The notes under the pieces: model-generated
What the model was told of the DNA's origin: nothing
The model's database searches: none
The model's input: only the letters and a program-made list of their open reading frames with translations
Part shown: positions 22,701-59,034 of the stretch, piece by piece
Layout: the number at the start of each line of letters is the position of its first letter
Position numbering within the stretch: the first letter of the stretch is position 1
Program-made: the position numbers and the translations under genes
From: Lama guanicoe
Lineage: Eukaryota
Length of the DNA stretch: 64,000 bases
Direction of reading: 5' to 3'
Assembly: GCA_013239625.1 (NCBI GenBank)
Contig: MU053588.1
Coordinates: 3,748,799 to 3,812,798 of the forward strand

Positions 22701-23205
22701 ACACGGGTGGCAGCGCCAGCAGCAGCGCTCCTGCCTGGGCCGGGGGCAGCGCGCGCCGCAGCCACTCGCACAGCCCCGGGAGTCCGCCCGGCCGCAGCGG
22801 GAACACCGGCGGCGGCGCCTCCTCCAGCACCTCCCACGTCTCGTCCTCTGGGCCCAAGGCGGCCGCGCGCTCTGAGTCCCCGCTGCCTGATATCTTCACG
22901 CCCACGCCAACCGGCTGCAAACTCTCGCTGCCTGCTTCCTCTGAACCTTCCCCGCCACCTGCTTTCTGCGATCCGGGGCCACGTTTCTCCCTTTCCTCAC
23001 TGCGTGCGTTCTCCACATCCCTTCCGCCGGCGTTTTCTAAGCTCTCGCCGCTGGGCTGCTCCGCTGTTTCTTCTTCTTCCAGAGCCTCCGGATCCTCGCC
23101 CTCGCCGTCTGTTCGCACGCAGACCAGCGGCGCATCTGGTAGCACCAAGGGCCGGACCCGGGCCCAGTCCTTCTCAGTGGGGGCCCCAGGGGTGACAAGG
23201 ATGAG

Positions 23206-23482
23206 ACCGTCATAGTGGGTTGGGCGGGGGGTGGCATCAGTGCCCTCGGAGCCCAGAGGCGTGGGCCCCTTGGGCGCCGACGCAGGCACCGCACTTGGGT
23301 CTTCAGGATCTAACCCGAGTAAGCGTCATAGTGGGTTGGGTGGGGGGTGGCAGCAGTGCCCTCGGAGCCCAGAGGCACCGTCCAGAGCACCACGTTGGGG
23401 CGCTCTGGGGCCGGGTAGGGCGTGGGCCCCTCGGGCGCCGACGCAGGCACCGCACTTGGGTCTTCAGGATCTAACCCGAGTA
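23206..23482 (-). repeat. Tandem duplication inside the last IRGQ exon (116-bp copy 23206-23321, 161-bp copy 23322-23482)
   Basis: The copies differ by a 45-bp deletion and 4 substitutions. Confidence 0.93.
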
Positions 23483-24551
23483 GCAAGTCCAGCACAAGGC
23501 CCATGTCAGCCCTACCCGCCACGGCCAGGTCCAGACGCGCGCTGCCCAGTCGCTCCAGGCCGGCGCGAACCCACGACAGCGCCGCCTCCAGGCCACCGGT
23601 CTCGAAGGCCTCGCGCACAGCCTCCAACTCTGCAGCGCCCAGGACCTCAAAGCCATCCTGAGCGGGTGGCAGGAGCCTGCGGGGACAGGGAGGGATGGGA
23701 TCAAGAGCAGAAGAGGGACTAAGTGGTGGGAAGCTGGGCTAGGGGGACAGGATTGGGTTATGAAAAGGGCGAATCTTTCCGAATAAGCAGGAAAGGGAGG
23801 GGCCAGACTAATGCCACAGAAAATAGAAACCAGGGACATGAAGAAAAGGGCTTTAAAGCAGGGACAGGATGGCTAGATTGAAATCAGGTTTCCAACAGAA
23901 CCTAAAATGGAGACCTGACAAAGTCTTTCCCGGGCTCACACTCTTTGGGAGCTGGGCTTTCCGAGGGACCTGCTGGATTAAGAAAAGGCTGTACTGGGCG
24001 GGGCAAAACTCAGAGAGAGAGGGGCTTGGAGCAAAGGCAGAATTGCGACTGTATTGTGGACTAAACGAAAACTGGGCCCTATTCAACAAGGTCAAGGTCA
24101 CCAAGGGCACTCTTTTCTGAATAAGGAGTTGGGTAAAGACCAGTGAAGGGAAAAGCCTCATCTACTAGTTCTCACCAAGAGGGAGGAGAGGCTGCCCTTC
24201 CCTGAGCTTCGTTTTGATGTCTATAAAACGAGGCCGCTCGGCGTTGGGGGAGAAAATTCAGCAAGTGGGCACAGAAACGAGAGGGGATTAGAGAAAGGAA
24301 GTGGGGGAGGGCACCCAGAAACAACAAAGCTCGCTGAGGATGTGGCTTTCTGGAGACTGGGGTCGCTTGAGAGCCAAGCTGATGGCGGGGAGGAGGGTGA
24401 AGACGGGACAGAGTGAGAGCTCCTTCACAGTTTTGCCTGGGGGAAGTATTTGGGCGCGAGGTCCCGGCCTCTCTCAGAATTCTCGCGAGGAAGCGCGCCT
24501 TGCGACCTCAGAGCACTCGCAGGAGGCAGAACCTGGATGACAGGTCGGGAC

Positions 24552-24650
24552 TTCTAGCTGATCCTTGGCTGGGGCCTCTGCAGCGCCTCCGCCTGGCTCC
24601 GCAGCGCCGTCCGCAGGCGCTCCAATTTCTAGCTGATCCTTGGCTGGGGC
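24552..24650 (-). repeat. 49-bp copy of the IRGQ coding-exon 3' end (24576-24624 = 24897-24945) between 24-bp direct repeats (24552-24575, 24627-24650)
   Basis: Direct sequence comparison; 2 extra nt (AT, 24625-24626) at the right junction. Confidence 0.95.
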
Positions 24651-25429
24651 CTAGATGACAAAAAAGAGTCAAGCACCGAGCACTAGCTTGGGGTGGAGCC
24701 TCGCGGACCTCAAAACCTGAGCTGAGGGGTGGGGCCTGGATGAGGGAGCAGGGCTTCTAGCAGATACCCCGTTAGCAGGCCCCAAACTCGCTGGGGGCGG
24801 GGTCTCACGGACCTCAAAGAACACCCTCAGGGATGGGAGGTATAGACTAAATAAAGCTCCAGGCCTCTTCAGACCACCCTGAAACGCCGCGCTCACCTCT
24901 GCAGCGCCTCCGCCTGGCTCCGCAGCGCCGTCCGCAGGCGCTCCAGCTCCTCGCAGCCGTCGCTGCTGCGGCAGTCTGTCGGTACCACGAAGAGAGCCGC
25001 GGCTCCCAGCCCAGCGCTGTCCAGCAGGGCCGCTGTCTGATTCCGGGCCTGAGCTTCATTCTGTGAGTCCACAGGACGGAGGTTCCGCACAGCCAGCAGC
25101 GGGGTTCCTCGGGCTAGGGCGGCCCGTGCTGCCTCCCCCAGCTCTGGAGCCAAGGGCTCCCCATTCCCCTCCGGTCCGGGCAGCACCAGTACCAGCACGT
25201 TGGCCTCCGCTTTCCCAGGGCCCCGGCGCTGCGGGTGGACAGCTCAGCTCGCCCAGGAAGAGGCCAGGACCCGCAGCTCTCAAGCTGGGGAGCCCGGAAT
25301 CCGGCCGTCCGTCGGGGATCTCTACCGTCTCCACATCCTTGTCGCACAGCGCTGCGATCAGCGCAGACTTTCCTGAGCCCGGAGGCCCGAGGAACAAGAC
25401 CGTCACGTCACCCCGCGGCGTAGGCATAG

Positions 25430-25576
25430 CGAGCAGACAGCCGGCACACGGGAGAGCGCAGTCAGCAGCCGATCAGCCGATGAGAAGCCCCGCCCCTGGG
25501 GTCTGAGAACGGAGGCCGAAGAGGCTAGAAAGCCGTGATTTGGGGACGCCCAGACGCTTTCCGGGGGCTCTAATCT
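25430..25576 (-). repeat. 147-bp exact duplicate of IRGQ exon 1 fused to the first coding exon
   Basis: Identical to 25885-26031 by direct comparison. Confidence 0.95.
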
Positions 25577-25884: not shown

Positions 25885-26031
25885 CGAGCAGACAGCCGGC
25901 ACACGGGAGAGCGCAGTCAGCAGCCGATCAGCCGATGAGAAGCCCCGCCCCTGGGGTCTGAGAACGGAGGCCGAAGAGGCTAGAAAGCCGTGATTTGGGG
26001 ACGCCCAGACGCTTTCCGGGGGCTCTAATCT
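25885..26031 (-). other. IRGQ: Putative non-coding exon 1 (5' UTR) of IRGQ
   Basis: On the minus strand it begins at an Inr-like TCAGATT and ends at a donor TCG|GTTGGT. An identical copy is fused to CT-ATG at 25430-25576. Confidence 0.7.
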
Positions 26032-37600: not shown

Positions 37601-40241
37601 CAGCAATGCTGAGCCGTAAGGCAGCCTCAGGAGGCATTTACTGAATGGCTGCAAAATAGGAAATACTTCCAGCTCTGAGCTGGGGGCTGGGGGCTGGGGG
37701 CTGGGGCCCCACCCCTCTTTCTCCTCCCACCTCTGACTTCACACCACATCCCCTCCAGGGTCTTCACTGCTTACTGTGACTTCATGAAGTTGGCCTGGGA
37801 AAGACAATCAAGTCGTCACCCATGGCTACCAGGCCTTTCATGTCCACTGTGACTTCCAGAACCACAAGCCCTTTTGTGGCCACCATGCCTTCTCCACCTA
37901 CAAGAACCACGAAGCCTGGCATGTCTCAGGCATCCACTGGACCCTCAATGCCCACAGCGTCTCCCAAGCCTCCTGGGTCCTTGAAGACCACCAGATCAGC
38001 AATGCCCAGCAGCTCCTCAGTGTCCACCAAGCCATCGACAGCCCCCAACTCAGTCACGAGCCCAAGTAGTTCCAAATCTACCAAATGGGCAAATACAAAG
38101 GCAGCCCCTTCTAACCAGCCTAGCAGCAAGTCCCAAGTTCACAGCAGGGCACAAACACCTAGCAAAGCCAGCACCGACACCAGGGCCAGCACTGACACCA
38201 GGAGTAGCAAAGCCAGCAAGGCCAGTGGGGTAAGGGGGCCCCGGCACAGAGGCACGCGCAGCCGGGGCAGAACTCCAGGCCGGAGGGGAAGCCGCAGCTC
38301 CAAGAGGTCAGCCAACAGGACCAGCACTCCCAGCAGGATAAGAACTCATGGTGCCAGATCAGGTATGCCCAGCAGGGTGAGAACTCCTACTTCCCAGCAA
38401 AACCAGAGGGCAGGGAAGAGTTATAGCAGACCAAGAAGCAACAACCGGGAAAGGAGTGAGAGCCAGCCTAGAAATACGAGCAGAAAGAAGAGCAAAAGCC
38501 CACCAGGAGCCTCGGGTATGGGGAAGAGTTCCAGCCTGTCTGTAACCCCTAGCAGGGCAAAGAGTTATAGCCCCACTAGAACTCCCTTCAGGGAGGAAGG
38601 TTACAGCCAATCTCCATCATCATCGAGGAGGGTGAAGAGCCACGGTCAGATGATCACCCCCAGCAGGAAGTGGAGTTACAGTCCAACTGAAGTGTCCAGC
38701 AGGGTTGAGAGTTACAACCAGGATACTGCACCCAGCAGGCCCCAGAGTCACAGCCAGTCTAGCACCCCTAGCAGGCACCGAAGTCGCAGTCGGAAGAGCA
38801 CCCACAGCAGGGTGAGAAGCCACAGTTGTAAGAGGAATCATAGTAGGGCAAGAAGTCGTACCCGAAGGGGAACTCCCAGTCAGATGGGAAAACACAGCCA
38901 GTCCAGGATCTGCAGCAAAGGGAAAAGTTATAACCAATCTAGAACCCCTAGCAAGGAGAGAGGTCACAGACGGTCTAGAACTCCTAGCAAGGAGAGAAAC
39001 CACAGCCGATCTAGAACATCCAGCAAAGAGAGAAGTCACAGATGGTCTAGAACTCCCAGTAAGGAGAGAGATCACAGCCGATCTAGAACCTCCAGGAGAG
39101 ACCAGAGCCGATCTAGAACTCACAGCAAGGAGAGAAGTCACAGGTGGTCTAGAACTCCCAGCAAGGAGAGAGAACACAGCCGATTTAGAACCTCCAGCAA
39201 GAAGAGAGACCAGAGCCGATCTAGAACCCCCAGCAAGGAGAGAGATCACAGCCGATCTAGAACCTCCAGCAAGGAGAGAGATCACAGCCGATCTAGAACC
39301 CCCAGCAAGGAGAGAGATCACAGCCGATCCAGAACCTCCAGGAGAGACCAGAGCCGATCTAGAACTCACAGCAAGCAGAGAAGTCACAGATGGTCTAGAA
39401 CTCCTAGCAAGGAGAGAGACCAGAGCCGATCTAGAACTCACAGCAAGGAGAGAAGTCACAGGTGGTCTAGAACTCCCAGCAAGGAGAGAGAACACAGCCG
39501 ATTTAGAACCCCCAGCAAGGAGAGAGATCACAGCCGATCTAGAACCCCCAGCAAGGAGAGAGATCACAGCCGATCCAGAACCTCCAGCAAGGAAAGCTAT
39601 TACACCCAATCGAGAACCCCCAGAAAAGAGAGCGGTTATAGACGACCTCGAACCTCCAGCAAAGAAAGAGATCATAGCCAAACTAGAACCTCCAGCAAGG
39701 AAAGCTATTACAGCCGCTCTAGAACCCCCAGAAAAGAAAGACACCACAGCCAACCTAGAACCCCCAGCGAGGAAAGATATTACAGCCGATCTAGAACCCC
39801 CCGAAAACAGAGAGATCACAGACGAACTTGGACCCCCAGCAAAGAAAGGGATCACAGCCAAACTAGAACTTCCAGCAACGAGAGAGATTACAGCCAATCT
39901 AGAACTCCCAGAAAGAAGAAAGACCACAGCCAATCTAGAACTTCCAGCAAAGAAAGAGATCACAGCAAGGAGAGAAATCCCAGCCAATCTACAACCCCCA
40001 GAAGTCTCAGCAAGAAAGGATCTCATAGCAGGTCACTAAGTCCCAATCACAATAGAACACCTAGTGAGAAAAGGAGCCACTCCTCCTCAAGATTTCTCAG
40101 CGGAGCTCCAATCCCAAACCAGGATGATATTCAAGCCAACACCACCACCTCTAAGGCCATCTCACCTGGAGAGAGGTCCTCATCATCTTCTTCCAAGCTG
40201 GCATAGCCTCCAGTCTCAGCTGGCTCACGGGTCTCTGTCAT
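34638..40241 (-). CDS. ZNF428: Zinc finger protein 428 (192 aa; acidic stretches plus one C-terminal C2H2 finger)
   Basis: Exons 40166-40241 (MTETREPAETGGYASLEEDDEDLSP) and 34638-35140 (GPEHSSDSEY...YHCTECEDSFDNLGELHGHFMLHARGEV*), phase-1 GT-AG intron. AATAAA on the minus strand at 34484-34489 followed by a GT-rich element. Probable non-coding exon 1 donor at 42816/42817. Confidence 0.96.
35620..35922 (-). mobile_element. LINE-1 3' end, antisense
   Basis: ttcagattcttttccattatag...gaatatagttccctgtgctatacagtagg...tttggtaacc, an artiodactyl L1 3'UTR pattern. Confidence 0.8.
37822..40206 (+). CDS. SRRM5: Serine/arginine repetitive matrix protein 5 (single coding exon; 794 aa, or 773 aa from the Kozak ATG at 37885)
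   Basis: 2.4-kb Ser/Arg/Thr-rich ORF ending PGERSSSSSSKLA*, nested antisense in a ZNF428 intron as expected from synteny. gccaccATG at 37885. AATAAA at 40404-40409. Confidence 0.93.
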   Translation: MATRPFMSTVTSRTTSPFVATMPSPPTRTTKPGMSQASTGPSMPTASPKPPGSLKTTRSAMPSSSSVSTKPSTAPNSVTSPSSSKSTKWANTKAAPSNQPSSKSQVHSRAQTPSKASTDTRASTDTRSSKASKASGVRGPRHRGTRSRGRTPGRRGSRSSKRSANRTSTPSRIRTHGARSGMPSRVRTPTSQQNQRAGKSYSRPRSNNRERSESQPRNTSRKKSKSPPGASGMGKSSSLSVTPSRAKSYSPTRTPFREEGYSQSPSSSRRVKSHGQMITPSRKWSYSPTEVSSRVESYNQDTAPSRPQSHSQSSTPSRHRSRSRKSTHSRVRSHSCKRNHSRARSRTRRGTPSQMGKHSQSRICSKGKSYNQSRTPSKERGHRRSRTPSKERNHSRSRTSSKERSHRWSRTPSKERDHSRSRTSRRDQSRSRTHSKERSHRWSRTPSKEREHSRFRTSSKKRDQSRSRTPSKERDHSRSRTSSKERDHSRSRTPSKERDHSRSRTSRRDQSRSRTHSKQRSHRWSRTPSKERDQSRSRTHSKERSHRWSRTPSKEREHSRFRTPSKERDHSRSRTPSKERDHSRSRTSSKESYYTQSRTPRKESGYRRPRTSSKERDHSQTRTSSKESYYSRSRTPRKERHHSQPRTPSEERYYSRSRTPRKQRDHRRTWTPSKERDHSQTRTSSNERDYSQSRTPRKKKDHSQSRTSSKERDHSKERNPSQSTTPRSLSKKGSHSRSLSPNHNRTPSEKRSHSSSRFLSGAPIPNQDDIQANTTTSKAISPGERSSSSSSKLA
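38935..39966 (+). repeat. Coding minisatellite, ~29 units of 36 bp (RSRTPSKERDHS), two of them 30-bp variants
   Basis: Unit cgatctagaacccccagcaaggagagagatcacagc repeated. 27x36 + 2x30 = 1032 nt matches the span. Confidence 0.95.
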
Positions 40242-58809: not shown

Positions 58810-59034
58810 NNNNNNNNNNNNNNNNNNNNNNNNNNNNNNNNNNNNNNNNNNNNNNNNNNNNNNNNNNNNNNNNNNNNNNNNNNNNNNNNNNNNNNNNNNN
58901 NNNNNNNNNNNNNNNNNNNNNNNNNNNNNNNNNNNNNNNNNNNNNNNNNNNNNNNNNNNNNNNNNNNNNNNNNNNNNNNNNNNNNNNNNNNNNNNNNNNN
59001 NNNNNNNNNNNNNNNNNNNNNNNNNNNNNNNNNN
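58810..59034. other. Assembly gap (225 N) over the CADM4 promoter/5' UTR
   Basis: Run of N. Confidence 0.99.

Follow-up and report, generated by a model that had tools for sequence, protein, structure and literature searches.

A splice-junction insertion in the IRGQ gene of Lama guanicoe is probably two alternative assembly paths written in series

False (heterotype) duplications arise in haploid assemblies when a heterozygous or divergent stretch is kept in both of its versions, according to the account of Ko et al. (2022, PMC9516828). RNA-templated repair of double-strand breaks leaves a whole-intron-deletion scar in the descriptions given by Jalan et al. (2025, PMC12065846) and Jeon et al. 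(2024, PMC11390984), and the cases presented there concern somatic cells (tumours and reporter cells) and not the germline. Class 2 templated sequence insertion polymorphisms, as treated in a review (PMC5110952) that cites Onozawa et al. (2014/2015), are short reverse-transcribed RNA patches with filler, without poly(A) and without an L1 target site; in that treatment they come from distant loci and have no target-site duplications. Finally, processed pseudogenes, which are L1-mediated retrocopies, are a genomic DNA source of exon-exon junctions and carry pseudogene-type mutations. Here we analysed a 64,000-nt stretch (the window) of the Lama guanicoe assembly GCA_013239625.1, in which the IRGQ gene holds a 75-nt block that resembles an insertion of spliced sequence.

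IRGQ is encoded on the minus strand of the window. Its first coding exon (24897-25429, minus strand), located by tblastn with the Vicugna pacos protein P0002, has its ATG at 25427-25425 and extends to a donor after 24897 (CAGAG/gtgagc; slashes mark borders). This exon corresponds to residues 1-177 of V. pacos IRGQ, except for a frame change after W71. The last exon starts at about 23683 on the minus strand according to tblastn and reading of the sequence. Outside its lesions, the gene shows 99-100% protein identity to P0002 (621 aa) by tblastn. It is broken by the frame change and by a 116-nt duplication in exon 3. The frame change (25207-25216, minus strand) is a 2-to-3-base replacement and no simple homopolymer slip, the gene strand reading tgg gAAA gcg where orthologues have W-A-A-E. 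Undamaged 621-aa IRGQ proteins were found in V. pacos (P0002) and Camelus ferus (P0004). Two of the three V. pacos models are labelled "LOW QUALITY PROTEIN", and the models of C. bactrianus and C. dromedarius are truncated or garbled. IRGQ also lies in the highest-GC 3-kb bin among the 104 bins of 314 kb of scaffold.

The block is made of two exact repeats. On the plus strand, 24575-24624 is identical to 24896-24945 (50/50; 49 exon bases plus one base common to the intron and the alternative exon), and 24552-24577 is identical to 24627-24652 (26/26). These 50-nt and 26-nt repeats are spaced 321 and 75 nt, respectively, and are far above chance expectation. On the minus strand, the copy of the exon end halts at the donor CAGAG/gtgagc, whose last exon base is 24897, and leads into GCCCCAGCCAAGGATCAGCTAGAA; the neighbouring copy has the same GCCCCAGCCAAGGATCAGCTAGAA after ctcttttttgtcatctag, with the AG of the acceptor (ctag) at 24651-24652. 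Read along the gene strand, the pyrimidine tract ctcttttttgtcatctag thus precedes 24 nt and an AT, after which come the final 49 nt of the exon, a second writing of the 24 nt, and unique sequence. The joint at 24617-24635, which connects the exon-end copy to the second 26-mer, reads GCGCTCCA/AT/TTCTAGCTG. Poly(A) is absent at both ends of the block. In these respects (the halt at the donor, the order of the parts, the insert length of 75 nt and the missing poly(A)), the original prediction was borne out by the sequence. The AT at 24625-24626 stands opposite AC at 24550-24551, so that the flanking repeat is really 28 nt long with one mismatch. The exact border at the junction is ambiguous by 3 nt (AGG in the orientation of the gene).

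The junction has the character of a splice junction. The donor CAGAG/gt is joined exactly to ctag/GCCCC, a strong acceptor. A sister event is found at 25430-25576 (minus strand), where an exact 147-nt copy of the end of the non-coding exon 1 (25885-26031) sits between the acceptor of intron 1 (catgAG) and the 5' end of the ATG exon. Here CTCG/gt is joined exactly to atgag/CTATG, the acceptor of the ATG exon. The 147-nt copy begins within a promoter TGACGTCA (CRE-like) site. As both events join a donor exactly to an acceptor, a spliced template is by far the best source of the junction, as had been proposed, and one of the sequence paths at this locus therefore derives from spliced sequence. 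DNA-only template switching (FoSTeS/MMBIR or polymerase-theta end joining), in which 50 nt were taken from 321 nt away through the AGG microhomology and the match to splice sites is a matter of chance, is highly improbable. Local templated insertions are common repair scars, and the 3-nt microhomology at the junction would suit such a process. However, the copy stops at a donor and re-enters at an AG after a long pyrimidine tract, and the sister event likewise leads from a GT-flanked end to an AG-flanked site. By our own estimate, which counts bare dinucleotides only, the chance for both events is about (1/256)^2, and the AGG ambiguity does not change the improbability of a chance match to splice sites.

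The acceptor at 24650 is a putative alternative acceptor, called from its AG and pyrimidine tract. No isoform using it was found in the protein database among 17 matches, of which 12 were inspected and none was camelid. Eleven of these 12 proteins end at the in-frame TGA of the intron directly after ...QR or ...RR, and one (P0120) continues into the intron. The ORF across the insert had zero matches in the protein database.

Near-exact local repeats were sought over 314 contiguous kb of scaffold, comprising the window, 200 kb upstream of it and 50 kb downstream, and 13 repeat pairs were obtained. Four pairs of a 36-nt tandem array, one of a 63-nt unit in three tandem copies, one SINE piece and one 24-mer were set aside. 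Four non-tandem local duplication events were left, and three of them contain an exact 50-nt run. All three are written in the same order: a stretch X ending in a base x1, a path a, the first 50 nt of a stretch Y, x1 again, a path b, and Y. In each of the three, the base directly after the exact 50-nt run repeats the one with which X ends, and the next base is where path b first differs from path a.

In the 75-nt case, X (24501-24550) is common to both paths before the fork, and its last base, A at 24550, is written again at 24625, a base recognised as the repeated x1 by comparison of the layouts. Path a (24551-24574, minus strand, 24 nt) is the spliced one and comprises a C allele and the first 23-24 nt past the alternative acceptor, leading directly into the exon end. 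The first writing of the first 50 nt of Y (24575-24624, minus strand) consists of 49 nt from the end of the first coding exon and one base in common with the intron. Path b (24626-24895, minus strand, 270 nt) is ordinary genomic sequence. It holds a T allele, the same 26 nt, the acceptor AG (24651-24652), the pyrimidine tract of this acceptor and 246 nt of proximal intron 2, which reach as far as the donor GT (24895-24896).

The second case lies in IRGQ exon 3. Its x1 is A (23206 and 23322), path a covers 65 nt (23207-23271), the start of Y is 23272-23321, path b is 23323-23432 and Y continues from 23433; path a with the first 50 nt of Y thus occupies 23207-23321, and x1, path b and Y occupy 23322-23482, both on the minus strand. 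The two paths are distinguished by four base differences and a 45-nt deletion. The first-written version is without 15 codons (YPAPERPNVVLWTVP) and carries E>K, A>D, H>R and A>G, whereas path b encodes the same protein as the orthologues. The H/R difference also distinguishes the V. pacos models P0002 and P0003. The third case (C1236:3594389-3594577) is AT-rich and was characterised by composition only. Its x1 is A, path a is 32 nt, the start of Y is 3594422-3594471 and path b is 55 nt, and the paths differ by a 23-nt indel and two bases.

Neither the exon-3 nor the AT-rich case involves a splice junction. Since the layout recurs without one, it is not a property of reverse transcription on spliced RNA; the shared layout is a property of how the assembly was written. 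This argument also counts against DNA-only template switching. Within the 64-kb window, all near-exact local repeats other than the 36-nt tandem array are located in IRGQ. General error-richness of the region was considered and rejected, as only one further event of this kind was found outside IRGQ in the 314 kb. A search with the Cullin family gave 53 exon matches on eight contigs and no obvious duplicated exon. A description of the exact 50+1 layout was not found in searches of the literature on cDNA contamination, gap-filling or false-duplication errors.

On this evidence, which is internal to the assembly, we consider it very probable that the 75-nt insertion is an assembly construct in which two alternative paths were written serially. 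The assembler would have met two paths between the common stretches X and Y and, choosing neither, would have written out X and path a, then 50 nt from the start of Y, the final base of X a second time, path b and Y. Path b would be the normal gene (T allele, start of the alternative exon, acceptor, 246 nt of intron, exon). Path a would be 24 nt with the C allele, in which nothing separates the alternative acceptor from the donor of the first coding exon. In the AT, the A would then be the final base of X written again and the T the first base in which the paths differ (T against C at 24551), and the apparent target-site duplication would be the 26 nt that both paths have in common between this base difference and the acceptor fork. 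The 49 nt of exon would be a k-mer flank, coming from the first 50 nt of Y. An earlier candidate, in which the 26-nt repeat was the k-1 overlap of a graph with k=27, was dropped because the 50+1 layout accounts for the 26 nt.

We infer that no molecule in the animal holds both paths in series. Most likely, the DNA of the animal contains path b, with its normal intron, and some reads contain path a. Compared with the false duplications described by Ko et al., the IRGQ case is alike in having two versions on one scaffold, in a locally divergent region, with a false disruption or gain of a gene. In contrast to what is described there, it extends over tens to hundreds of bases, has no gap between the versions, shows a fixed overlap of 50 nt and 1 nt, and has as one version a splice-junction path, which is no ordinary haplotype.

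Leftover contigs of 214 nt gave an independent sign of a k-mer graph with a matching k. Four such contigs were tested. Two (C20610 and C20606) are variant copies with exactly 49 identical bases beyond their outermost differences; of the others, one is an exact duplicate and one comes from a multi-copy region. Flanks of k-1 bases around the outermost variants are typical of alternative branches in k-mer graphs. The 49-nt flanks and the 50-nt runs together point to an assembler using a k-mer graph method with k near 50. C20610 (G000:C20610:1-214) duplicates a stretch of IRGQ exon 3 (22728-22941, minus strand, 214 nt) with five differences, at its bases 50, 88, 122, 141 and 165, leaving 49 identical bases on each side. 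These five differences fall within 116 nt and cause three amino-acid changes relative to the IRGQ of the scaffold. The alleles of C20610 (KRS, SEH and ATPP) are those of V. pacos P0002. Because C20610 differs from the scaffold, the read set held two versions of IRGQ. At one of the differing sites, within VGVK[R/I]SGSG, the scaffold carries an unusual R>I.

The layout, its recurrence and the k-mer flanks are directly visible in the assembly, and with them the target-site-like duplication and the two untemplated nucleotides claimed in the original prediction lose their support, being accounted for by the 50+1 layout and the 49-nt flanks of the leftover contigs. The prediction had also held that the block shares its geometry with the exon-1 event. 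This stands in part: the exact join of donor to acceptor is shared and the restart follows the same rule (C then T against C then G), but the run in exon 1 is 144-147 nt and not 50. The 50-nt layout therefore does not fully explain the 147-nt copy; another fork close to 26031, or some other step of the assembly, would suffice to produce it.

The original prediction had favoured a real germline insertion, in which a 3' end of the antisense (plus) strand within the alternative exon annealed to spliced IRGQ RNA, primed reverse transcription across the junction for 49 nt and was re-joined, leaving a 24-nt duplication and two filler bases. Such an event would belong to aborted RNA-templated break repair resolved by end joining. 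The junction runs exactly from donor to acceptor, the geometry is as expected from nick- or break-primed (strand-displacement) synthesis on spliced RNA, and the inserted material is all exonic in the three IRGQ events. Break repair templated by spliced mRNA is also known from human cells, as the two reports describe (PMC12065846, PMC11390984), and short reverse-transcribed patches at breaks form class 2 in the review of templated sequence insertion polymorphisms (PMC5110952). The proposal resembles that class, as the review presents it, in the short reverse-transcribed RNA patch, the lack of poly(A) and of an L1 target site, and the filler, but the IRGQ patch would be in cis and would have a duplication of 24-26 nt. 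The assembly layout accounts better for these features. Neither the 50-nt run nor the repeated base nor the adjacent difference is unique to this event, since they recur in exon 3 and at C1236:3594389-3594577 where there is no splice junction, and the supposed filler AT is one base off the flanking AC. Moreover, three events and a frame change within 3.6 kb would make IRGQ, otherwise 99-100% conserved, a null allele. Insertion in vivo by plus-strand-primed reverse transcription is thus unsupported, its features being explained by the recurring layout, and we regard it as decidedly unlikely. If it were true, the serial arrangement would be rare natural evidence of germ cells copying spliced RNA into a mammalian gene. 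Canonical L1-mediated target-primed reverse transcription does not fit either: of its marks (poly(A), a TTTT/AA-type target, a target-site duplication), none was established here, the 75-nt block being without poly(A).

Under the preferred reading of two paths written in series, path a must come from reads holding the spliced IRGQ junction. Three sources are candidates, namely cDNA-derived reads, a young retrocopy and an allele with precise intron deletions. The first is possible, though tentative: cDNA- or RNA-derived reads in the read set of the assembly may have added exon-exon paths to the graph, through library cross-contamination, index hopping or the use of transcript data for gap closing. 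Two IRGQ junctions are present in the same assembly, and the path is unspliced for at least 33 nt beyond the possible donor of the short alternative exon, like partly processed RNA. The start pattern of the exon-1 copy has two matches in the assembly, both in the window, and there is no third copy and no retrocopy flank. However, no other gene in the 314 kb has a junction copy despite the gene density of this region, and the canonical junction of exons 2 and 3 is unrepresented. The C in the spliced path against the T in the genomic path would require RNA from another allele or another animal.

A young retrocopy of the IRGQ transcript elsewhere in the genome, collapsed onto its parent in the graph, is a comparably tentative source. 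In the 314 kb the effect is confined to IRGQ, where both short intron intervals show it, and the second source carries changes of the decay type (frame change, 45-nt deletion, E>K, A>D, A>G and R>I). The flaws in the other camelid IRGQ models (two of three in V. pacos, and those of C. bactrianus and C. dromedarius) would also be in line with it. On the other hand, five DNA queries and one exact pattern found no other IRGQ-like place in the assembly except the 214-nt C20610, and no flank contig with the start of the exon-1 copy; a copy that was collapsed or left out of the assembly would escape such queries. The spliced form takes the putative alternative acceptor and not canonical exon 3. The IRGQ case resembles a processed pseudogene in offering a genomic DNA source of exon-exon junctions and pseudogene-type mutations, but differs from it in having no poly(A), no separate locus and no flank in this assembly.

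Alternatively, path a may be a real second allele or nearby copy that has lost intron 1 and the initial 246 nt of intron 2 exactly at splice sites, which is unlikely. Such an allele would mean that RNA-templated repair had left a heritable whole-intron-deletion scar, which the assembler mis-wrote beside the normal allele, a reading to which we likewise give little weight. With the repair described by Jalan et al. and Jeon et al., path a would have in common the gene's own spliced RNA as template and an exact exon-exon junction in DNA and, if it is a real allele, a precise deletion of an intron or intron segment like the scar reported there. The scar, as described, means that the intron is lost, whereas in the window the intron is kept and an exon end is added, which we attribute to the assembler. 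Of the three sources, the intron-deleted allele is the least likely a priori.

Word shares were obtained for the stretch in public runs (20-24). The best DNA runs had a share of 0.91, and RNA runs had 0.41-0.49. In a k-mer model, 6.5% of the words occur in the four IRGQ anomalies only, which sets a ceiling of 0.935 if all of them are absent from the DNA. The observed 0.91 against this ceiling fits an artefact, a real insertion or modest divergence.

Alternative paths written serially in this assembly bear a recognisable signature, the 50-nt run with one repeated base. The signature breaks reading frames, here that of IRGQ, and can be mistaken for a templated insertion, a target-site duplication or a duplicated exon. 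The IRGQ case also indicates that spliced IRGQ sequence was present in the input of the assembler.

The assembly totals 2.05 Gb in 55,231 pieces and consists of scaffolds with gaps, whose N runs fall in GC-rich or low-complexity sequence. An N gap of 225 at 58810-59034 of the window is flanked by (GCC)n, and an N gap of 62 at C1236:3607789 lies beside a G run; these gaps show that the assembly fails at extreme GC. At G000:C1236:3559050-3559238, the 63-nt unit forms a perfect three-copy tandem repeat, which could be an ordinary minisatellite or an effect of assembly. The 36-nt array at 38742-40061 of the window has about 28 copies that are 60-90% alike, with a strong skew of A over T, and is probably a coding repeat of a neighbouring gene.
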